From positions 25,747-89,746 of the forward strand of contig JAJRVJ010000005.1 of NCBI GenBank assembly GCA_024277435.1: 64,000 nucleotides of DNA, in the 5' to 3' direction. This stretch comes from Patescibacteria group bacterium. Its GTDB lineage: Bacteria > Patescibacteriota > Patescibacteriia > UBA9570. Each line of letters starts with the position of its first letter. Position 1 is the stretch's first letter. Shown here piece after piece: positions 1,037-55,532 of this stretch. The notes beneath the pieces were generated by a model, which was not told the origin of the DNA, did no database searches, and saw only the letters and a program-made list of their open reading frames with translations. The translations under genes were made by a program, and so were the position numbers.

Positions 1037-3607
1037 TTATTTAGAAAACACAACTTGATCATTGACAAAATCAACTTTCATAGTATCTCCATCATGAATA
1101 CTACCTTCAATAATTTCTAACGATAATTTATCGAGAATAACTTTTTGAATAACTCTCTGCAATGGTCGTGCTCCAAATTGCTGATCAAACCCAATTGTTG
1201 CCAAATGGCGCTTAACAGCATCAGTTAGCGTAAGGTGTATGTCTCTTTTAGCTAATCGTTTTTGCACGCGAGCAACTTGTAAATCAATAATACTCTCAAT
1301 ATGTTCTGGTTCAAGATGATGAAAAATAATAGAATCATCAATACGATTTAAAAACTCAGGCGGAAACGTTTCTTGCAATACAGTATTCACCGCATCACGC
1401 TGAGCAACAGTATCACCAATATGCTGAGCAATTTGTGTACTACCAAGATTTGATGTCATAATAATTACTGTATTTGTAAAATCAACCGTACGACCCTTAG
1501 AATCAGTTAATCTTCCATCATCTAATACTTGCAATAATATATTCAACACTTCTGGATGTGCTTTTTCAATTTCATCTAATAAAATTACTGTATATGGATA
1601 ACGCCGCACAGCCTCGGTAAGCTGTCCACCTTCTTCATGCCCTACATATCCTGGAGGTGAGCCGATGAGTCGAGCAACAGCGTGCCTCTCCATGTACTCA
1701 CTCATATCGATACGAACCAAGCGTTGTTCATCATCAAATAAAAATTCTGCCAAGGCCTTTGCTAATTCGGTTTTTCCAACTCCGGTGGGGCCTAGAAACA
1801 TAAATGATCCAATTGGGCGTGATTCTTCTTGGATTCCAGCTTTACTACGCCGTATAGCATTCGCCACAGCATGCAATGCTGGCTCCTGACCAATTACTCG
1901 CTCACCTAATAGTTGTTCTAATAGCGCCAACTTCTCTAACTCCTGTACTAACATCTTTGCTACTGGGATATGTGTCCAACGTGATACAATTTGCGCAATA
2001 TCAGTTTCAGTCACTTCCTCCTTTAGGAGGGTCTCATCCTGCTGAATGCTTGCCAAATCCTGCTGAGCCTTGATAATTGTTTTCTCCAATTCAGGTATTT
2101 GACCATACGTAATTTCAGCCACGCGCTCTAAATGACCATCGCGCTCAGCCTGTATTGCCTCTTCTTTGAGTAAATCAATCTCTTTACTCGATTCATTAAT
2201 TTTATCAATATACTTCTTTTCATTCTGCCATTGCAACTCAATATGTGTATATTCCTCACGTAATTCTGCTAACTCTTTTTCAAGATCACGTAATCGCTGT
2301 TTCGATGTTTTGTCTTTTTCTTTACGTAACGCTTCGCGCTCAATTTCTAATTGCCGAATACGACGATCAAATTGATCAATCACTGTAGGCTTACTATCAC
2401 GTTCAATGCGCAATACCGAACATGCCTCATCCATTAAATCAATTGCCTTATCTGGTAAAAAACGATCGGCAATATAACGATCAGATAACGTTACAGCAGC
2501 CACTAAAGCATTATCACGTATCTTCACGCCATGATGCACTTCATACTTCTCCTTAATGCCGCGCAAAATTGAAATAGCATCTTCAACCGACGGCTCCTCA
2601 ATAACGATTGGCTGAAAACGACGCTCCAGCGCAGCATCCTTTTCAATATACGTTCGATACTCACGTATTGTTGTTGCCCCAATGGCTCGTAACGTACCAC
2701 GCGCCAAAGCTGGTTTCAATAAATTACCAGCATCCACTGCACCATCAACTCCACCAGCCCCAACAATAGTATGGAGCTCATCAATAAATAAAATAACCCT
2801 ACCATCAGATGTTTCAATTTCTTGCAATACCGCTTTCAAGCGATCCTCAAATTCACCACGATACTTGCTGCCAGCCAATAGAGCTCCTAAATCGAGTGCT
2901 AACACCAACTTATCACGTAAACTATCCGGAACATCCCCATCAACTATTTTCTTGGCTAAGCCCTCCACAATAGCAGTTTTACCAACTCCTGGCTCTCCAA
3001 CTAATACTGGATTATTTTTCGTGCGGCGCGATACAATTTGCATCACACGACGAATTTCATCATCACGCCCAATGACTGGATCAATCTTTCCAGCTTTTGC
3101 CAGCTCAGTAAAATCAGTTGTATATTTATCAAGTGCCTCATATTTTCCTTCGGGATCTAGATCAGTTACGCGTTGACTACCTCGTACCGCTTGCAATGCC
3201 TGTATAACATCTTCACGTTGTACATTTAAGAGCTTAGCAATAGACTCCTGCTTGAGTAATGCTAATAACAAATGTTCTGTACTAATGTATTCATCACCTA
3301 ATTTACCTGCTTCGGATTCTGCATCTGTAAATACATTCTTTAATTCATTAGTAGCATACGGAGAATCACTAGTGCTGACCTGATGTTGTTTTTGTAATTC
3401 ATCCTGCAATTGTTGCTGAATATCTTCCGTAATAATTTCAAGCCGTTCGAACAACCGCGGCACAATTCCATCCTTCTGCTGAATCAATGAAAATAGCAAG
3501 TGCTGAGGCTGCACCGCTTGATGTTCTAAGGTTCCGGCTAATTGCATAGTAGCTTGGATAGCCTCAGCAGATTTAGTAGTATACTTTGAAAAATTCATAA
3601 TATTCAA
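1037..3607 (-). CDS. clpB: ATP-dependent chaperone ClpB (Hsp100 disaggregase)
   Basis: 856 aa; Clp N-domain repeats; two AAA+ modules ([15 protein letters not shown] / [15 protein letters not shown]); a long coiled-coil M-domain between them; sensor-2 [10 protein letters not shown]. Confidence 0.95.
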
Positions 3608-5913: not shown

Positions 5914-6432
5914 TTATAATTGATAAAGATAAATAGATATACGATCCTCACTGGGTTTATCAACAGTAAGGGGCTCTAGTCCTCGTATAGGAAATGTATA
6001 GGAAATCACCCTTGTACCAGGCGTTGCTTCAGTATACAACTTTTTTACTAATCTGCCTTCAAGCTTTTTTGGCATACCAAATACATAAATAACATCAGCA
6101 CTAGATAAATCTTGTGAAAATAGATTACCAAATACAAATGTAGCATTCTTGGTCCTAGTGAATAATTTACGAGCCACACATACTATGTATAGTGGAAACG
6201 CTAATTCCACACCAACAGCGGTAATATCATACCGTTGAGCAGCAGCTAACACTACCTTTCCATTACCACAACCAAGATCATAAAAACGCTCACCTGACTG
6301 TATATTAGCCAGCGCAAACACTCTATCTAAATCTTTTTTCCACATTGGCACCCATGGAGCCATTGATAATGCAGCAATCGTAAAGCTCAATATGAATAAA
6401 AAAACAATTAAAACAACAACTTGGAGAACCAT
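5914..6432 (-). CDS. class I SAM-dependent methyltransferase with an N-terminal TM helix
   Basis: Motif I FYDLGCGNGKVV; its start overlaps the stop of the upstream Clp-like gene (TAATG). Confidence 0.6.
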   Translation of the reverse strand: MVLQVVVLIVFLFILSFTIAALSMAPWVPMWKKDLDRVFALANIQSGERFYDLGCGNGKVVLAAAQRYDITAVGVELAFPLYIVCVARKLFTRTKNATFVFGNLFSQDLSSADVIYVFGMPKKLEGRLVKKLYTEATPGTRVISYTFPIRGLEPLTVDKPSEDRISIYLYQL

Positions 6433-9209
6433 TAAATTCTTTCGGCCTTAATAACTTCCACCTGGCCACCAGCTTGCAATTCAACAACATCTCTGCGCGA
6501 TAAACGACTCTGTAATAATAATTTTGCAATCGCATCTTGTGCGGTATCTTGTATCAAGCGCCGTAATGGTCGAGCCCCATATATTGGATCATATCCTCGC
6601 TCAGCAAAATCTACCACAGCCTCATCTGTCCAACGTAAGGTAATACCCTTTACTTCCATTTGCTTAGCTAAGCCAGCTAATAATAATTCACACACCTGTT
6701 GCAATTCTTCTTTTGTTAACGGCGTGAATACCACCACATGATCAAACCGATTTAATAACTCAGGACGAAAACTCTGATTGAGTAACCCCTCATTCAATAA
6801 TTGATCTTTAATGCCACCGCTAGTAGCGCCCTTCGCATACAGTTGCTGAATCACATCAGTACCTGCATTAGATGTTGCTACAATCATTGCGTTAGTAAAA
6901 TCTACCGTTCTACCAGTACCATCCGTTAAACGACCATCCTCCATTACCTGTAAAAAGATATTAATAACATCACTATGGGCCTTTTCGATTTCATCTAGTA
7001 ATACAATTCCAAAAGGAGTTTTACGAATAGCTTCAGTTAAATTTCCTTGCTGACCAGGTGCTCCAATTAGTTTCGATAATGAAGCCGGTGTTTGATACTC
7101 ACTCATATCAAAGCGCATCATGTTTGACTCATTACCAAAATACGCTTCCGCGATAGCTTTAGCAGTTTCTGTTTTACCTACACCAGTAGGCCCCAGAAAT
7201 AATAACGAAGCAATTGGACGAGTTGCATCGCGTAAATCTTCACGCGCCCTACGCAACGCCTTACCAATTGCATTAATAGCCTCATGTTGACCAATCACTC
7301 TACGATGCAATAAATCCTCCATGTTCAACAACTTATCAGCCTCATTTTGAGAAATTGCCGCTACTGCCACATTGGTTTTTTCGGACATAATCTGCTCAAC
7401 CGCCGATTTACGTACTAATTGCTTCACACCATAATGCTCACGCGTATAAATAGCAGCTTCCTCAATAATATCCACCGCCTTAGCTGGAAGATGACGATCT
7501 TGTATATAGCGATCACTCAATACCACAGCTGATTCAAGTGCATCATATGTAAAAAATACTTGGTTCTTTGCCTCAATATAAGGAGCGCGACCCTCAAGCA
7601 CTTTGATAGAATCCTGATGATTGAGTTCTGGAACTTGCACAACTTGAAAACGACGCAAAAATGTTTCTTGATTTTCGATGTGCTTCTGAAATTCAGGTGT
7701 AGTAGTAGTACCTAATACTTTTATGTATCCCTGAGAAATATAGTTCATCAAAATTTTACCAATATCAATACTAGACTGTGTTGATCCAGCCCCTAATAAG
7801 GTATGAATATCTTCAATAGCCCAAATAACATTTCCGGCTAAAATAATATCTTGAATAATCAATTGCATGCGTTGCTCTAAACCTCCAATACCTGATGCTC
7901 CAGCAATAATAGCACCCGGATCGGTAACTACTAAGCGCTTATCCTGTAACTGCGCCGGCACATCCTCGGAGGTCATTAAATTCGCAATGCCTTGCAAAAT
8001 TGTAGTTTTACCAACGCCTGAAGGGCCAACTAACATAACGCTACTATGACCCTCTTGCAACACACGAAATGCTTCATTAATTTCTTTCTCTCTACCAATT
8101 GGGGCCATAAATGCATTATTTTTTGCCATCAATGTAAGATCTTGCGAAACAGCGTCAAGATTCTTAGTAGGACGAGCTGTCATAGCCCGATTCATTACCG
8201 TTTTTGGCTTACCACGTGATAAGCGCTTACGACGATGCTCTTTATCCATCAAAGCCGTTACCAAATTACTCCAATGTACTAAATTACGAATCTTCTGCAT
8301 ATCCACATCTCTATCAAATAAAGCATCTTGAATATATTGATCTGCTAAAATTGATCCCACCATTACTTCAACCAAATCTACCGCCGGTTGCTCTTGATAA
8401 CGGGCCTCAGCATAGGCATACATAAGGGCCTTGCGCACCTCTGCGCCAAAATCTGGTGAATGTGTAAATTGATCTAGTTGATTTTCACGGTCGGCAATCC
8501 TCTGTATAGCTGCAACGAGATCTTGCGAGTTTATTTCCACACGATAGAACATTGATGCCACAGCTTCCTGTTCCATCAACGCTAAAAACAAATGACTAGC
8601 CCTCACCTCAGCATGCTTCAACTTAATTGCCAATTGATATGCGTCATCCAATACATTAAGCGCTCGGGTTTTAAAATAGTGTGATACATCAATTTTTTTA
8701 TGATTATCATAAGCACTCCAATACTCCCAACTGTTCATTTCATCAGTGAGGATTTCATCTGCAAAATGATTTGGTTCCGTAATCTCTGGTATTTGCTCAA
8801 GTACACGTTCTATCCGATAATACGCAAATAAATCCGCTAATACTGATAGCCAAAATATCAATAATTCACTCGATCGGTGAGTAAAGAAATCAACAAACGA
8901 GGCTCCAGCTTCATTTAATTCAACTACCTGAAGTACCATTGCCACAAAGCCACCGATACCAATAATTAATAATACTGAATTGATAAACCAATTCACTACT
9001 CGCTCCATCTTTTTTTCTAAGAGAGCAGCTGGGCTAATTTCATGACCCCAATACAATACGTCATTTTGAAAAAAACCATACACACTCTGCTTGTTGTGAC
9101 ACATCGAACATGTCACATGCTCACCAGATGCGGTAAGCGCATAGCCAAACCCATGACATTGTGGGCATTCTAAAAACGATGCGTTATATTGATCCTTCCC
9201 TATGTCCAT
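6432..9209 (-). CDS. atypical Clp/Hsp100-family AAA+ ATPase with an N-terminal zinc ribbon and one TM helix (ClpA/ClpC-like double ring, no M-domain)
   Basis: CPQC...CSMC zinc ribbon; TM helix WFINSVLLIIGIGGFVAMVL; Clp-N-like region; Walker A in D1 (GPSGVGKTT) and D2 ([12 protein letters not shown]); sensor-2 GARPLRRLIQ; short D1-D2 linker; no I/L-G-F/L ClpP loop visible. Confidence 0.85.
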   Translation of the reverse strand: MDIGKDQYNASFLECPQCHGFGYALTASGEHVTCSMCHNKQSVYGFFQNDVLYWGHEISPAALLEKKMERVVNWFINSVLLIIGIGGFVAMVLQVVELNEAGASFVDFFTHRSSELLIFWLSVLADLFAYYRIERVLEQIPEITEPNHFADEILTDEMNSWEYWSAYDNHKKIDVSHYFKTRALNVLDDAYQLAIKLKHAEVRASHLFLALMEQEAVASMFYRVEINSQDLVAAIQRIADRENQLDQFTHSPDFGAEVRKALMYAYAEARYQEQPAVDLVEVMVGSILADQYIQDALFDRDVDMQKIRNLVHWSNLVTALMDKEHRRKRLSRGKPKTVMNRAMTARPTKNLDAVSQDLTLMAKNNAFMAPIGREKEINEAFRVLQEGHSSVMLVGPSGVGKTTILQGIANLMTSEDVPAQLQDKRLVVTDPGAIIAGASGIGGLEQRMQLIIQDIILAGNVIWAIEDIHTLLGAGSTQSSIDIGKILMNYISQGYIKVLGTTTTPEFQKHIENQETFLRRFQVVQVPELNHQDSIKVLEGRAPYIEAKNQVFFTYDALESAVVLSDRYIQDRHLPAKAVDIIEEAAIYTREHYGVKQLVRKSAVEQIMSEKTNVAVAAISQNEADKLLNMEDLLHRRVIGQHEAINAIGKALRRAREDLRDATRPIASLLFLGPTGVGKTETAKAIAEAYFGNESNMMRFDMSEYQTPASLSKLIGAPGQQGNLTEAIRKTPFGIVLLDEIEKAHSDVINIFLQVMEDGRLTDGTGRTVDFTNAMIVATSNAGTDVIQQLYAKGATSGGIKDQLLNEGLLNQSFRPELLNRFDHVVVFTPLTKEELQQVCELLLAGLAKQMEVKGITLRWTDEAVVDFAERGYDPIYGARPLRRLIQDTAQDAIAKLLLQSRLSRRDVVELQAGGQVEVIKAERI

Positions 9210-34867: not shown

Positions 34868-35260
34868 CGGGGATGTTTATATTCGATGATATCGTTCTTT
34901 TCATTGCTTGCTAGATGTGCTGAATATCACATTAATCTGTTCAAAAGTACAATTGCAAACATCGTACAAAAGGCTAAAGCGAAAGTTGCAGCATTATTTG
35001 CTCAACCACTAGCTTTTGCTCCTGCTGTAGCCTAAAACCTACAGCCATCCACTGATCTGATGCCTCATAGGATCACTCGGGTGTCACTTTATAAGGCTAT
35101 GCTATATAGTTCTGGGACTATGTAGATGAAAATTGCTCTCAGATCGAAGGTTGCCGTTTTGGCTGTTTTCCAGGTTAACCTTTTAAATGAAAAAACTGCC
35201 TAGCTAGTAGACGGTAATGCGATAGCGTATTAGACGCGGGTGTGAGCCCCGCCATCTCCA
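34868..35260 (+). ncRNA. ssrA: transfer-messenger RNA (tmRNA, SsrA)
   Basis: 5' GGGGAUGUUUAUAUUCGAUG pairs with 3' CAUCUCC-A to form a 7-bp acceptor stem with a G3:U70 wobble. The 3' GACGCGGGU...CCCGCC T-arm is near-identical to E. coli tmRNA. An internal tag frame, ...GCU AAA GCG AAA GUU GCA GCA UUA UUU GCU CAA CCA CUA GCU UUU GCU CCU GCU GUA GCC UAA, ends AFAPAVA*. The gene lies directly downstream of smpB. Confidence 0.75.
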
Positions 35261-35329
35261 CAATTACATGTAATGTACTGCCCCATCACACTTCAGTATC
35301 TTGCATAATTAATTACTAACACTACCACA

Positions 35330-47770: not shown

Positions 47771-49252
47771 TCAAGTATGCCAACGAATACCATTGTATTT
47801 AGCGATAAGATCCACAGCGCCTGCCGGACCCCATGACGCTTGTTCATATGTTTCAACTGAAATATCTGCGTCACTAGCCCAGGCATCTAATACTGGTTGA
47901 ATAATCTCCCACTGCCGCATTACTTCTTTAGTGGTTGGAAATAATGATTGATCACCTACAATCACGTCATGAATTAAACGTTCATATGGAGAAGGCTGTT
48001 CTTTAGTAAATGCATTTTTATAGAAAAAATCCATATCAACCTGATCCGTAGCAATATCAAAACCTGGTTGCTTAGCATAAAGGCGTAACGTAACACCCTC
48101 CTCTGGTTGTACACGAATTTTTAAAATATTGGGAGCTGTTTGAATGCCTTGCGTGCTACAAATATTTGAAGTGCATGGTGAAAAATGAATAGAGATAGTA
48201 GTAGACTTACGTTTCATACGTTTACCAGTTTGAATAAAAATTGGCACATCAGTCCACGATGGATGATTAGATTGTAAACGCAGCGCCGCATATGTATCCG
48301 TTTTTGAATCTTCCTTTACTCCAGGAATATCTTGATAACCCTCATACTGTCCACGTACAGCAATGTCACTAATAGTTGCATGAGACGCTAAGCGCAAAGA
48401 ATCTAAAATAGCCTCCTTGCTGCGATGAATATCTTTTGATTCTAAACTAAATGGTTCATCCATCATTACTAGTGCAAGCAATGCTAACACATGACTTTGC
48501 ACCATATCACGTAATGCACCTGCTCCATCGTAATACGCCGCTCGCTGTTCTACACCTAAATCTTCCGCGGCCGTAATTTGAATATGATCAATCCCCTGTG
48601 GATTCCATGAATCACGAATCACTGGATTGGTAAATCGAAATAATAAAATGTTCTGCACGGTTTCTTTAGCAAGATAATGATCCATCCGATAAATCTGCTC
48701 TTCTTCAGCATAATTCAATACCGTTTCATTTAAAGCCTTGGCTGTTTCTACATCATGTCCAAATGGTTTCTCTATAACAATTTTAGCTTTCACTCCAATC
48801 TCGGAACATTCTCCCGCTAAATCAGCAGATTTAAGTTGCTCAATGATAGGAATAAAAAACTGTGGAGCCGTTGCTAAATAAAACACCGATTGATGCGGCA
48901 TCTTACATTGTTCATCACGCGCGCGTAACTCCTGGGTGATGCGTTCATATGTAGCTGTATCATCAAACACACCTGATACATAATCAAATAACTGCACAAA
49001 CTCATCAAGTCGATCTAGTGATCGATTATTATCAATATAGGTTTTAACACTGTCTTTTACTAACTGCCGATATTCAGCTTGAGAAATATCTCTACGTGCC
49101 ACGGCAATAAAACTAATATCATCTGGTAATAAATGATTGATATATAAATGATATATTGCCGGCAATAACTTACGCCGAGATAAATCACCGGTTCCACCAA
49201 AAATTACAAAATTGGTTGGATGATATGTAGCACCTTCTAACTTCTGAATCAT
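47771..49252 (-). CDS. zwf: glucose-6-phosphate 1-dehydrogenase
   Basis: NAD(P) motif FVIFGGTGDLSRRKLLPAIYHL; MDHYLAKE (DHYLGKE signature); EKPFGHD. Uses a TGA stop. Confidence 0.9.
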   Translation of the reverse strand: MIQKLEGATYHPTNFVIFGGTGDLSRRKLLPAIYHLYINHLLPDDISFIAVARRDISQAEYRQLVKDSVKTYIDNNRSLDRLDEFVQLFDYVSGVFDDTATYERITQELRARDEQCKMPHQSVFYLATAPQFFIPIIEQLKSADLAGECSEIGVKAKIVIEKPFGHDVETAKALNETVLNYAEEEQIYRMDHYLAKETVQNILLFRFTNPVIRDSWNPQGIDHIQITAAEDLGVEQRAAYYDGAGALRDMVQSHVLALLALVMMDEPFSLESKDIHRSKEAILDSLRLASHATISDIAVRGQYEGYQDIPGVKEDSKTDTYAALRLQSNHPSWTDVPIFIQTGKRMKRKSTTISIHFSPCTSNICSTQGIQTAPNILKIRVQPEEGVTLRLYAKQPGFDIATDQVDMDFFYKNAFTKEQPSPYERLIHDVIVGDQSLFPTTKEVMRQWEIIQPVLDAWASDADISVETYEQASWGPAGAVDLIAKYNGIRWHT

Positions 49253-49336
49253 ATATACAGTATACCACATCTACTACAGCCTGTAATAGACAACGCCCCA
49301 TGATCTTGCAACCATGAGGCGTTTGTCCTCCTCGTA

Positions 49337-50407
49337 CTAATCATCACGTTCGCACCGCTCGAAAGCGAGCTGGCGCCTGGTGTTACGCAGAGTCTCTGCT
49401 CCACCGCCATTCTTCAGCTGCCGCAGCAACCGATGAATTTCTACGCCCATCTGATACCAGACCAGTGGATTGTAGAAAGCGGTGTGACCCAGCTGCAGCC
49501 ACAGCGGCTGCGCATAGTACCAGCGCGTCCGCAGCTCTTCCAGCGTGATTCCGGCATCTTCATCCGGTGGGACGATTCTGGCATTGCTACGCAGAACCAC
49601 CCGATCGCCCCAGGTGGCACAGAAGAACCGCATGTGTACACCCCACTCACTATGAAGCTGCAACACACGATCTCTCCAACGGACAGCCGTGGAATGCTTC
49701 AGGCTCATACTCACAGCGGTCATGTGCTTACTCAGCACCGATAACCCAGATCCGCGCCAGGGCGTGGAAATGGTGAAGATGCTGTCCAGCACAATTCCAT
49801 ACTCTTCAATGAGCCGCTCAGCCAGAACAGTGATGTCTCTACCACCCTTGCTAAAGGCCAGTCCGATCACGGGAATGTCTGCTACGTAGTCCGCTACGAT
49901 GGCTTCGTACACGGGCTGAAGCTGAAGCTCTGCAATGCGGGCAGCCGACCGAACGTTGCCGTTGGTTGGCGTTACCATCATCACGATGCGCACGCCCCAC
50001 CAGCGTGACAGAGCTCGGGCAATCCAGTACGCTTCCTCTGTGAGCTGCTGAAAGCCCAAAGATACCACCACGGTAGCCAAGTGCTTGCCATGAGGTTCGA
50101 ACTGGCGCGGCATCTTACCGTACCGAAGCCGAACATACCGAATTGTAATGGCTGCCAGCAAGAGAATTGGAATGTGCGTAACGGCCAAGACGAAGATCTC
50201 GCGATCCGTCAGCACGCGGCGCAACTTCCGCAGAACGAATCGTGCTTTTCTCCACTGCACAGACACCTTCCACCGGAAGGAATCGCGCGGCGCCTTGTTA
50301 AACCAATGCATTACTCCCTCCGATGTCCAGTGATTATAAAAGTACTCTCTATCAAATAACTCGATTCTAGCAGTTTTGTCAATCAAAAACACCCCATAGA
50401 TATCCAT
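49337..50407 (-). CDS. hypothetical membrane-anchored protein in a GC-rich patch; possible alpha/beta-hydrolase-like
   Basis: 356-aa ORF in DNA of roughly 55% GC; N-terminal TM helix IFVLAVTHIPILLLAAITI; AFSKGG (A-x-S-x-G-like) elbow. The family assignment is weak. Confidence 0.4.
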   Translation of the reverse strand: MDIYGVFLIDKTARIELFDREYFYNHWTSEGVMHWFNKAPRDSFRWKVSVQWRKARFVLRKLRRVLTDREIFVLAVTHIPILLLAAITIRYVRLRYGKMPRQFEPHGKHLATVVVSLGFQQLTEEAYWIARALSRWWGVRIVMMVTPTNGNVRSAARIAELQLQPVYEAIVADYVADIPVIGLAFSKGGRDITVLAERLIEEYGIVLDSIFTISTPWRGSGLSVLSKHMTAVSMSLKHSTAVRWRDRVLQLHSEWGVHMRFFCATWGDRVVLRSNARIVPPDEDAGITLEELRTRWYYAQPLWLQLGHTAFYNPLVWYQMGVEIHRLLRQLKNGGGAETLRNTRRQLAFERCERDD

Positions 50408-50433
50408 GGGGTGCTTATTTACTTCTCTACAAT

Positions 50434-51660
50434 TTATGAGCTAAGCGCTTTCGTTTTTACGCCACGATATTTTGTGTAAGGAAGCCACTGGTCATCAACC
50501 CTCACGCGTACCCGAACTGTATATGTAGTTTCTGGATCAAGTCCACGAAATGTAGCTCTTCGTTTTCTAATAGTTTTTTGTTGCACTAATTTTCCATCCG
50601 AGCCTTTAATTTGCCAACGATACTTACTAGCACCTTTAATCTTTTTAGTTTTTATAGTTAGTTTATGAGCTTTACGGAATTTTTTAATCACTCGCGGTTG
50701 ATTACCTTTTAGCTTCTTTAATTTATAACGACCAACCTCCGTAGAATCAATAGCTTTGTTGACGTCTGTAGAGGCTAATACTGTTCCAAAATAACTATCA
50801 TCAAAAGTACTTAACGACACCTCTAGATAATCATAATAATTCCAACCCGTAACATTAAATACATCATCGCCAGAGGCCACTAATGCCATATCTACCTCTA
50901 ACGCACCTTCGGTATAGAGTTTACTGCCGCTATTATTTGCATTACTAGATAACTGAGCAGTTGTAAAATCAATTAATTCTGTATCAACATTATAGTGAAA
51001 TGTTCCTGAATTATCAGTATCTTCCCAAAATTTAATCTCTACCGGATTATCAATACCAGGCTCCATACCAGGAATGCTGCTATCAAATTCATCCATGGTA
51101 AGATGAATCGTATAAAAGTAGAGGTCATCTTGCGCCGTAAGATTATTTATACTAAACACCAGCCATTTATCAAAATCTACTGGACTACCAATCGTGTCAC
51201 CAGGACCATTCGTAGAATCTACGTCACCTAATTCAAAATACGATCCACCGCCATCACCAGTAACCACATCTAATGGCTCAATCCCAACGAGCGGAAAAAA
51301 TGATTTGTAGTACACATAAAACCATTGCGCATCATTGCATACTTTTACATCTTCAATATCCATCATGCGATCAACGTCTAAGCGCCAATCATAACCAGCC
51401 GCTAAAGCGGCGGCGCCAGTTACTTCAGTTACTTCATTTACCCAAGTATCAGTAGTGCTATTATAGTACCACCAATTTTCTGTAACATCAGCTCCATCAC
51501 TAACTAGCGATGTAATAGGCGTCCATTCGGAAGCATTATTATCAATAACTACTGAAGAGCAAGCACTTACAGCGCTAGCACTTGTTGGCACGACGAACCA
51601 TGTAATCATCATGGCTGGAGCAATCAACCAACTGACGATGCGAATAAATCTTTTATGCAT
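50434..51660 (-). CDS. secreted protein with a C-terminal lysine-rich FN3-like module
   Basis: Signal peptide MHKRFIRIVSWLIAPAMMITWFVVPTSASA; C-terminal ...TYTVRVRVRVDDQWLPYTKY with K/R-rich strands. Confidence 0.5.
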   Translation of the reverse strand: MHKRFIRIVSWLIAPAMMITWFVVPTSASAVSACSSVVIDNNASEWTPITSLVSDGADVTENWWYYNSTTDTWVNEVTEVTGAAALAAGYDWRLDVDRMMDIEDVKVCNDAQWFYVYYKSFFPLVGIEPLDVVTGDGGGSYFELGDVDSTNGPGDTIGSPVDFDKWLVFSINNLTAQDDLYFYTIHLTMDEFDSSIPGMEPGIDNPVEIKFWEDTDNSGTFHYNVDTELIDFTTAQLSSNANNSGSKLYTEGALEVDMALVASGDDVFNVTGWNYYDYLEVSLSTFDDSYFGTVLASTDVNKAIDSTEVGRYKLKKLKGNQPRVIKKFRKAHKLTIKTKKIKGASKYRWQIKGSDGKLVQQKTIRKRRATFRGLDPETTYTVRVRVRVDDQWLPYTKYRGVKTKALSS

Positions 51661-51879
51661 ACTATTTCTATTATTTATGAATTATAAAAAAGATATGTTG
51701 CACTAATGACACTGTTTATCATTATGCGAACATACCCATTCCCTGTTTGAGTATTATAGTATATGGTCTCGCTTATAAGAGCCTACACAGGATGACCACG
51801 TATAGTTTATACAACAAGATTCATGTGTCAATCAAAAATATCACAACTACTGAGTAGTGAGTTGATAGCCTCGATACTA

Positions 51880-53658
51880 TTAATCGGAAATATGTTTCGT
51901 TAAGTAACGACGACGCCAGTTATGATAATGCTTTTCTTTTATTTCTTCTTCCAAGGTTGGGCGGTATAATACATCGATATAATCTTCTACCATGCGCTGA
52001 GCTGAAAAATCCTGCCACACTAAACCAATTGTCTTCTTCATACGCTCAACCCACTCATTCGGTACATTCTTATCATCACGTTTATAAAATATATCTGTCA
52101 TTTCACCTTCAAGTAATTTGTATACATGCTCAGCTGGATTATCAGGATCTAATGTCCAGCCCATACCATCTAAACTTACTTCAGCAACCCAACCATCACT
52201 TACTGAACACTGTAAAATGCCATTGGCTGCCGCTTTCATTCCGCTGGTACCACTAGCCTCCCGGCCATAGATGGGAGTGTTTAACCACACGTCAGAACCA
52301 GATACTAATACATCAGCTAATTTAATATTATAATCTGGTATAAAAATAAAATCATTTTCAAGCCCATTGTCTTTAATGGCTTTCAATATACGCTTAATAA
52401 TTTCATGTCCTAACGTATCCGCTTGATGAGCTTTGCCAGCAATGAGAAATTTAACAGGTTTGTGTGCATGAAAAATAATATCCTTTAAACGCGCAATATC
52501 TTCAAATATTGTTTCCGGACGTTTGTATGACGCAAATCGACGCGCCCATGTAACGATCATGGCATCTGGATTAATTTCTCTACCAGTTCGATATTTTACT
52601 TCATCACGTAAACGATATTTAGCCATGGTATGTAGTCGCCATAACGCATAATTAGGCAGCTCATCAATTTGCTTCACACTAAACTTTGGCGCTTGAGCTT
52701 TAAGATCAGCGCTTACCCAACTAGGCATATGCACACCATTGGTGATACCCTCCATAGTTTTATCTGGCCATACTTCTTTCGCCATCTTGGCGTGCAATTT
52801 ACTTACCGCATTCATTCGAGCAGCCATATTTAATGCCAAGGCAGACATGCTAAATAATTCTGGTTTACCATCTACTTTTCCTTTATCTAAAATATATTCA
52901 ACCGACAACGTAAGGTCTTCTGCGTAGGTTTTAAGATAATGAATTACCAAATCACGCTGAAACACTTCATTGCCAGCTGGTACTAATGTATGATTCGTAA
53001 ATACAATTTTATTATGCGCATATTCATAGGCCTCCTCGAATGTCATATCATACTCTGCCTGATAATGTGCAGTAATTTCAAAAATCGCAAATGCGGAGTG
53101 CCCCTCATTCAAGTGAAATAATGATGGATGAATATGTAAGGTTCGCAGAGCTCGTACCCCACCAATACCAAGAACCATTTCTTGCAAAATACGAGTTTCT
53201 TTATCACCGCCATATAATCGACGAGTAATCAAACGATGCTCGGATGTATTTTCGGGGATATCAGTATCAAGCAGATACAATGAAACATCCCCTTCAATAT
53301 GTTCCCAAATCTGAAAATGCAACAAGTGCTCATCTACCGGAATAGTGATTTTGATCGGCTCTCCATGACTATCTACTACTAAATTAATTGGCGCCGCCGC
53401 AACATTAAGAAGAGGATATTTTTCTTGCTGCCCTTCCTTTTCATCAATAATTTGTTGAAAATATCCTTCTTTATATAAAAGACCCACCGCTACAAACGGC
53501 AACTCCATATCGTTAGCGGCCTTTACAATATCACCCGCTAAAATACCTAAGCCACCAGAATAAATTGGTAAACGATCGTCTAAGCCAAACTCGGCGCTCA
53601 TGTATGCAATAGGATGCTGTCCAAGCGTCCACCGAAATTTTTGTAAGTCCATAACCAT
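51880..53658 (-). CDS. glgP: alpha-glucan (glycogen/maltodextrin) phosphorylase, GT35 family
   Basis: AYMSAEFGLDDRLPIYSGGLGILAGD N-terminus; PLP-site EASGTSGMKAAANG. Confidence 0.9.
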   Translation of the reverse strand: MVMDLQKFRWTLGQHPIAYMSAEFGLDDRLPIYSGGLGILAGDIVKAANDMELPFVAVGLLYKEGYFQQIIDEKEGQQEKYPLLNVAAAPINLVVDSHGEPIKITIPVDEHLLHFQIWEHIEGDVSLYLLDTDIPENTSEHRLITRRLYGGDKETRILQEMVLGIGGVRALRTLHIHPSLFHLNEGHSAFAIFEITAHYQAEYDMTFEEAYEYAHNKIVFTNHTLVPAGNEVFQRDLVIHYLKTYAEDLTLSVEYILDKGKVDGKPELFSMSALALNMAARMNAVSKLHAKMAKEVWPDKTMEGITNGVHMPSWVSADLKAQAPKFSVKQIDELPNYALWRLHTMAKYRLRDEVKYRTGREINPDAMIVTWARRFASYKRPETIFEDIARLKDIIFHAHKPVKFLIAGKAHQADTLGHEIIKRILKAIKDNGLENDFIFIPDYNIKLADVLVSGSDVWLNTPIYGREASGTSGMKAAANGILQCSVSDGWVAEVSLDGMGWTLDPDNPAEHVYKLLEGEMTDIFYKRDDKNVPNEWVERMKKTIGLVWQDFSAQRMVEDYIDVLYRPTLEEEIKEKHYHNWRRRYLTKHISD

Positions 53659-53692
53659 GATGGACTGAGTATAGCACTTTTTTGAAGCTATT

Positions 53693-54049
53693 TCAAGATG
53701 AAGGCAACTGCTTATTACACCAATTGTTAAACATATTGGTAATTGCTAGAAAAGCTGGGATGGTTCCAAGGTCATCTACGTATCCAATAACTGGAAGAAA
53801 TAATTCTGGCACCACATCAATTGGAAATAGTATATACAACAGCATAGCAATTCCGGCTAATACATAAGCGGTTTTTGCTTTACCTGGAACTGCGGTATTT
53901 CGTAAGTATGCCCAAGCAATTGGTAGAGTTTTCCAAAACTCCCACCAGGGTGGTAAAAACTGTTTAATAAAATCATTATCTGTAACAGACTTTTTTTCTG
54001 GTGATTCTTTCGGTTCGCTCTGTACCAATGGCAATTTCTCTTCATTCAT
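53693..54049 (-). CDS. YkvA/DUF1232 family membrane protein
   Basis: FPIDVVPELFLPVIGYVDDLGTIPAFL matches the DUF1232 core motif. Confidence 0.65.
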   Translation of the reverse strand: MNEEKLPLVQSEPKESPEKKSVTDNDFIKQFLPPWWEFWKTLPIAWAYLRNTAVPGKAKTAYVLAGIAMLLYILFPIDVVPELFLPVIGYVDDLGTIPAFLAITNMFNNWCNKQLPSS

Positions 54050-54201
54050 ATATACATTGTAGCACGTTTTAGTACTACCTACTCTCTAACTTCAAGCTGG
54101 ATTGAAGATTAAAGTTACAGCGTAGGTGCCCCGTCTCAACTTTCGTCGATTCGGGGCGCCGCTGGCTTACGCCGGCAGCTCCTTCTAGGAACCTTCGTCT
54201 A

Positions 54202-54666
54202 CTACGTTTCATCATTGCGCAAGATAGGTACGACCTCGCGCTCCACGGCCACAGCCGGGTCCACCATGAGGTCGATGAACCGCGGGTGCCGAGAGCTGGC
54301 TCCGATCCGCTTCTCCCAGTGACTGGCGAAGGCGAAGGGCACGAAGATCGTAATCCAGTAGAGCAGCCAGTCCTCCAGGCAGAACAATAACGCGGCGCCC
54401 AGAGTGTGGACACCGAAGATGCTGTGGAGCAGAACGGCGTAGAAGCCGAACTCCACTAGGTAGCGGAGGATGGTGTAGAGGTACCAAGCTCCGGCCGGCA
54501 CGTACTCCTTCAGGCTGCGCACCCGAGCCACCTCGATGGCCTTGGCCTCTCGCGACTCCCGGATGAGCTGGAAGAGACCCTTGCGGGTCATGGGGATCAA
54601 GATCGCGTACTGCTTAAGGATAATCACGATCTTTGCGAAGATGGTCAGGCTGATGGGATCAACCAT
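54202..54666 (-). CDS. hypothetical polytopic membrane protein in a GC-rich patch
   Basis: ORF MVDPISLTIFAKIVIILKQYAILIPM... with 4 TM helices; DNA roughly 58% GC. The overlapping ORFs 54075..54413 and 54212..54487 are spurious alternate frames. Confidence 0.4.
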   Translation of the reverse strand: MVDPISLTIFAKIVIILKQYAILIPMTRKGLFQLIRESREAKAIEVARVRSLKEYVPAGAWYLYTILRYLVEFGFYAVLLHSIFGVHTLGAALLFCLEDWLLYWITIFVPFAFASHWEKRIGASSRHPRFIDLMVDPAVAVEREVVPILRNDET

Positions 54667-54863
54667 AGGTCTCAGGTCCTTCAGGCACATACTCAGCGAC
54701 TGTGCCTATTAGGTTGGCGGGGGTGAATGAACAGTATGTCTTGAGTGTGTCTTACGACCCGTAGGGCTACGTGCACACTTAAAGACAGAACAGTATACTT
54801 AATAAGTGATCATTTGTCAATCCTTATGTACAAAAAACCATAATATATGGTAAACATATCTAT

Positions 54864-55532
54864 ATGAGCAAAACGAAACCTAGCAATCGAGGTAAAACTG
54901 AACGCTTCGCAAAAATACAAGAATTCTCTAATGTTCTTCATTTTGGAGCTTCAACAAAGGGTAAGTGGAATAAAAAGGTGTTCAATAATACAAACCCAAT
55001 TATTCTTGAATTAGCATGCGGCAAAGGTGAATATACCGTAGAGATGGCCCGCAGATTTCCTGATAAAAATTTTGTTGGTATAGATATAAAAGGAGAGCGT
55101 ATATACATTGGCGCAAAACAAGCGCTAGAAGAGAACCTAATGAATGTGAGATTTCTTCGTACAAAGATTGAAGATTTAGCTAAATACTTCAAAAAAAACG
55201 AAGTGTCAGAAATTTGGATTACCTTCCCCGATCCATTTCCAAAGATGAAGCAAATGAAACATCGGCTTACAGCACCAAGCTTCATGACTATGTATACAAA
55301 TATATTAAAGCCAAAGGGCTTACTGCATTTAAAAACCGACGCCGGACATTTACATCATTATACAATTGGAACAATGCAGGCTGCTGATTTTAAAATTCGT
55401 AAGATGTCTGAAAACATATACGCGCAAGATACGCTCGCTCATCCCCTACTGGATATTAAAACCAACTTTGAAAATAAGCATTTAGCCGCTGGGAAAAAAA
55501 TTTATTATGTACGTGGTGAAAATCGCAAGTAA
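54864..55532 (+). CDS. trmB: tRNA (guanine46-N7)-methyltransferase TrmB
   Basis: ILELACGKGEYTVEMARRFPDKNFVGIDIKGERI; WITFPDPFPK. Confidence 0.85.
   Translation: MSKTKPSNRGKTERFAKIQEFSNVLHFGASTKGKWNKKVFNNTNPIILELACGKGEYTVEMARRFPDKNFVGIDIKGERIYIGAKQALEENLMNVRFLRTKIEDLAKYFKKNEVSEIWITFPDPFPKMKQMKHRLTAPSFMTMYTNILKPKGLLHLKTDAGHLHHYTIGTMQAADFKIRKMSENIYAQDTLAHPLLDIKTNFENKHLAAGKKIYYVRGENRK

Follow-up and report, generated by a model that had tools for sequence, protein, structure and literature searches.

A conserved GC-rich gene for a predicted serine hydrolase in AT-rich genomes of Patescibacteria

Introduction

Compositional genomic islands, as known from the work of Lawrence and Ochman, owe their atypical guanine-plus-cytosine (GC) content to recent transfer and subsequently ameliorate. 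The P1 adhesin operon is a native GC-rich operon in the AT-rich Mycoplasma pneumoniae. The gene considered here, given the working name X, is a GC-rich gene on the minus strand at 49337-50311 of a 64,000-nucleotide stretch of DNA (hereafter the window) from a Patescibacteria group bacterium (assembly GCA_024277435.1, contig JAJRVJ010000005.1, positions 25,747 to 89,746). Like the classical islands, X is a single gene with atypical GC, GC at third codon positions (GC3) and codon usage, and it has sharp boundaries. Unlike them, it is syntenic across a deep divergence, is unameliorated despite apparent synonymous saturation, has host-like dinucleotide frequencies, and lies at a locus where mobility features were not found. 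With the P1 adhesin operon it would share the character of a native, vertically inherited gene far above the GC content of its genome, but no recombination of the RepMP repeat type is evident at X, and its predicted product is an enzyme, not an adhesin.

The closest described relatives of the predicted enzyme are monoacylglycerol lipases and other small lipases, such as human MGLL (3jw8, 3hju) and Bacillus licheniformis BlEst2 (6wpy). They have the core fold of the X model in common (Foldseek E-values of 1e-7 to 6e-7), with a template modeling (TM) score of 0.62 for BlEst2, normalized on BlEst2. The Ser-Asp-His order and a GxSxG-type elbow are also common to all three, but the sequence identity of MGLL and BlEst2 to X is just 13-17%, and X, unlike either, has an invariant sTPxxGs motif as well as two long helices at its N-terminus, of which one is hydrophobic. 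RavL (Lpg1108, PDB 7x2p) of Legionella pneumophila is the only lipase-like solved structure found by sequence profile, in a marginal match (E 0.034) that aligns the elbow and a TPxxGS motif. RavL is a lid-less α/β hydrolase with a predicted Ser-Asp-His triad (PMC11696984). Its elbow reads AHSRGG where the X orthologs have GFSKGG, and its Foldseek TM score is 0.61-0.62, normalized on RavL. It is a secreted effector that targets eukaryotes and, unlike X, lacks the N-terminal helices. Common descent of X and RavL would be supported at the superfamily level only.

Results

Base composition and codon usage of X

In 300-nucleotide (nt) windows across about 49250-50450, the GC content steps from 0.34-0.42 up to 0.54-0.57 and back to 0.35-0.39. 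The patch extends over about 49290-50311, the span of one minus-strand gene. As a coding sequence of 324 amino acids (aa), X has a GC content of 0.565, with 0.603, 0.437 and 0.655 at the first, second and third codon positions (GC1, GC2 and GC3). The 46 other long open reading frames (ORFs) of the window average 0.394 in GC (standard deviation, sd, 0.024) and 0.308 in GC3 (sd 0.039, maximum 0.426), which places X far outside their spread (z = 7.2 and 9.0, respectively).

Codon choice in X resembles that of a GC-rich genome. CTG makes up 54% of its Leu codons (5% in the rest of the window) and TTA 3% (42%), all of its Gln codons are CAG (100% versus 40%), and 90% of its Lys codons are AAG (39%). 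G-ending and C-ending codons are both elevated. The protein contains 10.7% Arg, compared with 4.3% (sd 2.1) in the other ORFs, and 3.1% Lys, compared with 5.8%. An earlier note on this DNA had described a single GC-rich gene, full of GC-rich codons, embedded in AT-rich DNA, and both the z-scores and the codon table confirm that description.

The composition-normalized dinucleotide signature of X is host-like. Its δ* is 0.109, and 122 window segments of the same size average 0.081 (sd 0.026; z = 1.1), 13 of them deviating as much as X or more. Such a signature is consistent with long residence in the host.

Orthologs, synteny and the question of recent transfer

Syntenic orthologs of X are present in five relatives, whose loci were covered over about 20 kb each: L001 (a 583-kb contig of GCA_040960375.1), L004, L005, L007 (GCA_016182495.1) and L011/L012 (GCA_041910155.1). 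Duplicate contigs of the same populations are 100% identical. The gene order in L001, L004 and L005 is trmB, a GC-rich gene, a DUF1232 gene, a glgP-like phosphorylase gene, X, an 87-aa gene, a PP2C-like gene, sigma-70, a DUF4349 gene, a methyltransferase gene and MgsA. In L007, whose X protein NCBI files under Candidatus Kerfeldbacteria, the order is trmB, glgP, X and DUF4349, and in L011/L012 X adjoins trmB. The window keeps the order of its relatives, but a gene with a weak resemblance to FN3 proteins precedes X, and zwf and a 576-aa ORF come after it.

Each ortholog is GC-rich in an AT-rich setting. The GC3 of X is 0.748 in L001 (neighbor mean 0.330, z = 13.8), 0.751 in L004 (0.329, z = 13.2), 0.729 in L005 (0.295, z = 9.7), 0.612 in L007 (0.379, z = 7.0) and 0.684 in L011 (0.359, z = 7.8), and the overall GC content of the orthologs is 0.55-0.61 against 0.42-0.44 in the flanks. 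More distant members of the family lie in contexts of 47-56% GC and show little contrast (z = 2.8 in L010 and 0.9 in L014, and none in the marine locus L015).

X has diverged in step with trmB and glgP. Compared with the window proteins, those of L001 and L005 are 58% identical for X, 56-58% for trmB and 80% for glgP (arginyl-tRNA synthetase, ArgRS, was not seen). In L007 the identities are 43% for X, 45% for trmB, 59% for glgP and 63% for ArgRS, and in L011 they are 36% for X and 37% for trmB, with glgP and ArgRS not seen. The reading best supported by these comparisons is that X was inherited vertically in a lineage of the candidate phyla radiation (CPR) related to Candidatus Kerfeldbacteria, in which the trmB/(DUF1232)/glgP neighborhood is conserved.

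The earlier note had taken the patch for a recent horizontal acquisition, that is, a single foreign gene imported from a GC-rich donor and not yet ameliorated. The strongly atypical composition and codon usage of X speak for such an import, as does the fact that its protein is an orphan outside any curated family. The reading nevertheless fails, because high-GC orthologs are conserved across the lineage, the very observation that the note had set beforehand against it. Five relatives carry them at this locus, their divergence keeps pace with that of the adjacent genes, the synonymous sites of X appear close to saturation (see below), and the dinucleotide signature lies within the host range. 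No donor was found among 5.8 billion proteins, where a word-indexed search retrieved only X's own protein and three relatives sharing 56-58% identity with it, or among 1.84 billion cluster representatives, where exhaustive searching with a profile retrieved 16 proteins at E ≤ 1e-3. The closest homologs are the syntenic orthologs.

Marks of mobility are likewise missing at X. Only short chance repeats occur in its flanks, none bracketing the patch, and no tRNA, integrase or transposase gene adjoins it, the neighbors being zwf and the FN3-like gene. ARAGORN reported no tRNA in the window or in any relative locus. A tblastn search of plasmids and phages yielded no X homolog, and the family profile matched nothing in JGI metagenome contigs or IMG/VR. 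Scans of GTDB species genomes were uninformative, with no match to the family profile and, for glgP, only a 23%-identity match in a metagenome-assembled genome of Cloacimonadota. Taken together, these results make a recent import very improbable.

Repeated independent acquisition of related GC-rich cassettes at a trmB/glgP hotspot would also place GC-rich genes at one locus in several genomes. The gap between trmB and DUF1232 holds a GC-rich gene in the window and in L001/L005, and the proteins encoded there have no detectable similarity. Gene content around X varies as well, with the FN3-like gene and zwf in the window and the 87-aa gene in the relatives. However, the divergence of X parallels that of trmB at three depths, the databases searched hold no donor pool, and att-like repeats and integrases were not found. 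We therefore regard a hotspot as quite improbable.

Synonymous saturation and probable maintenance of the composition

Synonymous saturation was assessed at four-fold degenerate sites under identical residues, comparing the window with its relatives. In X, 28-42% of these sites carry the same base, where 27-30% are expected from composition, and in glgP 39% at most and 27% at least do so, where 23-29% are expected. The four-fold sites of both genes thus appear close to saturation. Their G+C content is nevertheless 0.60-0.81 in the X orthologs and 0.32-0.39 in glgP and trmB of the window, L001 and L005 (about 0.51-0.55 in the L007 copies of glgP and trmB). Since the synonymous sites have turned over and are still G or C, the composition would be maintained and not passively inherited, and active maintenance of the GC-rich composition of X is the best supported interpretation of these comparisons.

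L001 and L005 can be compared over more genes. Corrected four-fold distances are comparable in magnitude, at 0.31-0.88 (mean 0.54) for five GC-type genes and 0.55-1.17 (mean 0.81) for ten AT-type genes. Each GC-type gene has the same GC3 in L001 and L005, and protein evolution is faster in the GC-type genes.

G-ending and C-ending codons are both raised in X and Arg replaces Lys, so the force should act on nucleotide content gene-wide. Such a force would keep the G/C-ending codons and the bias toward Arg over Lys stable in every lineage, and the GC richness of X would not reflect a lack of time to ameliorate. One option is selection on GC content or on a codon dialect, for example for regulated or slow translation through rare codons, or for transcript stability. 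This option fits the sharp drop to AT-rich sequence at the 5' end of X and the uniformity within the coding sequence, where GC3 is level throughout. The other option is GC-biased gene conversion or some other strongly GC-biased fixation. In line with it are the quicker evolution of the proteins that GC-type genes encode and the partial GC enrichment of the spacers separating adjacent genes of this type. Selection for translational accuracy is unlikely, GC3 being the same at invariant and variable residues.

The predicted product of X

The X protein matches no Pfam, NCBIfam, PHROG or PADLOC model. Seven residues are invariant in an alignment of 19 family sequences: Ser154, Gly156, Pro184, Gly187, Leu219, Asp236 and His276. 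The elbow motif at Ser154 is AFSKGG in X and GFSKGG in the orthologs, which bears out the A-x-S-x-G nucleophile elbow proposed in the earlier note. Asp236 stands in the context WGDRVV and His276 in GHTAF in X, and the sTPxxGs motif is invariant across the family alignment.

An AlphaFold2 model built on this alignment has a pLDDT (predicted local distance difference test) of 90.3 and a predicted TM score of 0.87. Ser154 is located between strand 148-153 and helix 156-171, Asp236 after strand 226-231 (the next-but-one strand) and His276 after the last strand, 267-269. The Ser-Asp-His order and these strand positions are the canonical α/β-hydrolase arrangement. Foldseek comparison of the model with the PDB gave 397 matches at E ≤ 1e-3, and the best 50 of the 397 are all lipases, esterases, thioesterases or serine hydrolases with probability 1.0, led by human monoacylglycerol lipase (E 1e-7), BlEst2, Legionella RavL and type II thioesterases. 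Motifs and model together indicate that X encodes a serine hydrolase of the α/β-hydrolase fold. Ser154 in the nucleophile elbow would attack an ester (or thioester) bond, with His276 and Asp236 serving as charge relay.

Among distant family members there are weak matches, at 3e-6 to 3e-5, to Abhydrolase_6, Hydrolase_4, Thioesterase and LCAT. Hydrolase_4 (PF12146), the MGL-like model, is matched at 1e-5 by three distant members, and PGAP1 (PF07819) only at E 0.11, by two. The X protein itself matches neither of these two models at E ≤ 1. It is thus predicted to resemble Hydrolase_4 and PGAP1 enzymes in its working, yet to lie outside those family models. As far as the searches define it, the X family appears to be new, very small, undescribed and confined to the CPR, inside a well-known superfamily.

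A hydrophobic segment at residues 39-57 (19 residues, Kyte-Doolittle mean 2.2-2.5) is present in X and its closest orthologs, and this N-terminal helix is probably a membrane anchor that would place the X protein at the membrane. The membrane-anchored protein of the earlier note can accordingly be kept for X itself, but the helix is absent from the family members P0005 and P0006, and membrane anchoring is therefore not a family-wide trait.

These features also bear on whether the patch contains a protein gene at all, as opposed to a chimeric assembly or to a structured, GC-rich element of RNA or DNA with a chance reading frame. GC-rich DNA does yield long chance ORFs on both strands, and in several other GC-rich patches of the relatives the deposited annotation has the wrong strand or reading frame (GC1 about 0.8). 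The junctions of X, on the other hand, are the same in independent assemblies from several projects, its GC3>GC1>GC2 pattern is in frame, its catalytic motifs are conserved, and its fold is confidently predicted. Antisense ORFs are not conserved, and Rfam gave no match in 49000-55000 even at E ≤ 1. A non-coding or artifactual patch can for practical purposes be dismissed.

Lipid context and proposed function

According to one account (PMC7242380), CPR bacteria are putative symbionts that reportedly lack the ability to synthesize their own membrane lipids and in which lysolipids are reported as enriched. Because of this and of the structural neighbors of the X model, a role in lipid-ester metabolism is proposed. 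The likeliest substrates would be small acyl-glycerol or lyso-lipid esters at the membrane, and by analogy the most likely role of X would be the trimming or scavenging of acyl lipids there.

The distant member P0010 (L015/L016, 8001-9014), from marine metagenomes of Tara Oceans and JGI, is widespread, being listed in 93 blocks of the collection. Its locus, with about 51% GC and no GC contrast, is a lipid-related setting that places it beside genes for an acyl-CoA-binding protein and a CDP-alcohol phosphatidyltransferase-like protein. The same locus also holds Stig1-domain giants and a Ser/Thr kinase.

Gene boundaries, signals and neighbors

The sole long ORF in the patch is the 356-aa minus-strand frame at 49337-50407 that the earlier note had reported. 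The frame exists, but its likely start is Met33, which gives the 324-aa product used above (Table 1). All homologs begin at the residue aligned to Met33, and the first 32 codons are AT-rich, absent from all homologs and overlap the upstream terminator hairpin; for these reasons X probably starts at Met33. The extension is probably untranslated. It contains promoter-like elements and the ribosome-binding site of X together with part of the upstream terminator.

GAGG-type motifs occur at the matching place upstream of the X orthologs. The candidate promoter of X was not called by the promoter scan, its -10 element being weak; no matching -35 element accompanies the perfect TATAAT at 50333-50338. 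In L001, L004 and L005 the TTGACA right after the upstream terminator is kept, and the whole order of terminator, TTGACA and GAGG-type ribosome-binding site recurs. The motif TTGACAAA was considered as a mark of GC-rich genes and rejected: it is unenriched in the window (6 found, 3.9 expected) and is therefore taken as an ordinary promoter element.

The upstream FN3-like gene ends at 50434 on the minus strand. Its terminator hairpin, which is palindromic, was called on the plus strand, and its minus-strand orientation was read from the sequence. This hairpin sets X apart as its own transcription unit. At the other end, the minimum-free-energy fold contains the stem of the 3' hairpin, with which the GC-rich patch ends. 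The patch is one monocistronic unit (49337-50311).

Table 1. Coordinates of gene X, its signals, and other GC-rich genes of the window and its relatives. Window coordinates refer to the 64,000-nt stretch; those of L001, L004 and L005 refer to the respective locus.
Feature	Sequence	Coordinates	Strand	Remarks
Coding sequence of X	Window	49337-50311	-	324 aa; ATG at 50311, TAG at 49337; all homologs start at the matching Met
AT-rich 5' extension of the 356-aa ORF	Window	50312-50407	-	Absent from all homologs; GC drops here
Shine-Dalgarno sequence GGAGGG	Window	50316-50321	-	4 nt before the ATG at 50311; read from the sequence
Candidate sigma-70-type promoter of X	Window	50354-50382	-	TTGACA 50377-50382; 17-nt spacer; weak -10 TTATTT 50354-50359
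Terminator hairpin of the upstream FN3-like gene	Window	50390-50413	-	CACCCCAT, 8-nt loop, ATGGGGTG, then TTTTTG
Terminator-like 3' hairpin	Window	49292-49323	-	14-bp stem; GCAA loop; weak U tract; 13 nt past the X stop
Promoter-like site of the second GC-rich gene	Window	TTGACA 54815-54820; TATACT 54792-54797	-	17-nt spacer
GC3-rich gene	L001	3958-4704	-	GC3 within 0.79-0.90
GC3-rich gene	L001	5042-5734	-	GC3 within 0.79-0.90
GC3-rich gene	L001	6818-7483	+	GC3 within 0.79-0.90
GC3-rich gene	L005	1474-2307	-	GC3 within 0.79-0.90
GC3-rich gene	L005	2556-3287	-	GC3 within 0.79-0.90
GC3-rich gene	L005	3989-4660	+	GC3 within 0.79-0.90
GC3-rich gene for an 81-87-aa protein	L001	11105-11368	+	About 120 nt after X
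GC3-rich gene for an 81-87-aa protein	L004	2147-2410	+	About 120 nt after X
GC3-rich gene for an 81-87-aa protein	L005	10321-10566	+	About 120 nt after X

Codons 12-16 of X (50261-50275, minus strand) contain a perfect hairpin, CCUUCC-GGU-GGAAGG, whose 5' arm can also pair with the GGAGGG Shine-Dalgarno sequence. L001 and L005 carry CCCUCC-NUU-GGAGGG at the same codons, changed on both sides. The covariation term for this hairpin is about zero (four sequences, poor alignment). The hairpin may be a translational switch.

The neighbors of X are those named in the earlier note. The low-coordinate neighbor is zwf (G6PD_N E 1e-58, G6PD_C E 1e-94), and the high-coordinate one has a sub-threshold fn3 match (E 4.7e-4). 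At the start of zwf, a promoter-like ATTACA, a 17-nt spacer and TG-TATACT (49287-49259, minus strand) overlap the annotated start at 49270. A second in-frame ATG of zwf (49252) follows right after this site and aligns better with the G6PD N-terminal domain. Translation of zwf may thus start at 49252, on a leaderless or very short-leader mRNA.

Other GC-rich genes of the window and its relatives

At 54050-54800 the window contains another GC-rich patch that consists of a single gene. Its ORF (54202-54690, minus strand, 162 aa, GC3 0.83) encodes a predicted membrane protein without a family match. A single homolog was found among the 5.8 billion proteins, P0025, with 63% identity. The gene for P0025 (L018) has a GC3 of 0.88 within flanks of 0.41 GC and lies upstream of a glgP 74% identical to that of the window. 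Unlike X, the second GC-rich gene has a δ* (0.163) above that of every other window segment. It has no detectable similarity to the gene, likewise GC-rich, that occupies the corresponding position in L001.

Further GC3-rich genes (0.72-0.90) are common to L001 and L005, and none of them has a counterpart in the window. They encode an Asp-rich lipoprotein-like protein bearing CDDxD repeats, a His-box membrane enzyme with HxxHH, HDTAH and HMQHH motifs, a transmembrane protein, and the Cys/His protein of 81-87 aa encoded after X. The last of these, absent from the window, has zinc-ribbon-like CPxCG...H...HxC motifs and may be a partner of the X hydrolase.

X is thus one of several small, lineage-restricted genes of these genomes with a GC-rich composition. 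That these genes form a set written in a GC-rich codon dialect and held throughout the divergence of the lineage is a tentative proposal. If true, the dialect would be an expression class defined by codons or GC, for example with translation gated by the supply or modification of tRNAs for G/C-ending codons, or with transcripts protected by their high GC content. Alternatively, these genes would represent GC-biased fixation at the gene scale stronger than any so far observed in bacteria.

Other features of the window

A full-length tmRNA lies at 34869-35263 on the plus strand (Rfam 81.9 bits, E 3e-30); ARAGORN reported no tmRNA in the window. Two genes for ClpB/ClpC-type AAA+ chaperones, at 1037-3598 and 6432-9209 (both minus strand), are less than 3 kb apart. 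The second encodes about 370 aa before its first AAA+ domain, a region that is largely unmatched in Pfam and contains one weak Clp_N repeat.

Discussion

X is probably a monocistronic, vertically inherited gene for a lipase/esterase-like hydrolase, likely anchored by its N-terminus, whose GC richness is maintained. Several observations weigh against this interpretation. The GC3 contrasts in the relatives rest on about 20 kb each and are not genome-wide, and the hydrophobic helix is not conserved in two family members. Polarized four-fold counts, 6 changes from AT to GC and 12 from GC to AT, are too few to show that the composition is stationary, and they carry a known parsimony bias that is visible in a control gene. 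The spacers between adjacent GC-rich genes in the relatives are somewhat GC-enriched (0.44-0.54), so that a regional process such as biased conversion fits about as well as codon-level selection.

The distant members P0008, P0010 and P0013 also count against it. They are found in contexts of 51-56% GC with little or no contrast, which makes an ancient transfer from such a lineage a possible origin of X. By this account the gene entered the ancestor of the CPR clade from a moderately GC-rich lineage and has retained its composition since. The sparse and patchy family agrees with such a history, as does the GC3 of X (0.61-0.75), which is below that of apparently younger GC-rich genes (0.80-0.90). 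The host-like dinucleotide signature does not, and the persistence of the composition would go unexplained, since under neutral amelioration saturated sites should sit near a GC3 of 0.30-0.38 in every lineage and instead show 0.61-0.75 in all of the orthologs. Ancient transfer is thus a possible but rather doubtful origin and, because it leaves persistence unexplained, a maintaining force is needed in any case.

The unusual part of the finding is the conserved compositional anomaly. In the literature searched, conserved GC-rich genes of CPR genomes are not reported, and these assemblies are not mentioned. Vertically inherited and maintained, X would clearly contradict the rule by which a compositional island of one gene indicates recent transfer. 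Scans for horizontal gene transfer by GC or codon usage alone would misfile it in every genome of the clade. With a GC3 of 0.61-0.75 kept inside genomes of GC3 0.30-0.38 through synonymous saturation, X would be a natural experiment that bears on how GC and codon heterogeneity is kept up in bacteria, whether by selection on synonymous sites, biased gene conversion or local mutation bias. For the organisms themselves, its predicted product is a candidate for lipid scavenging or remodeling in CPR bacteria.

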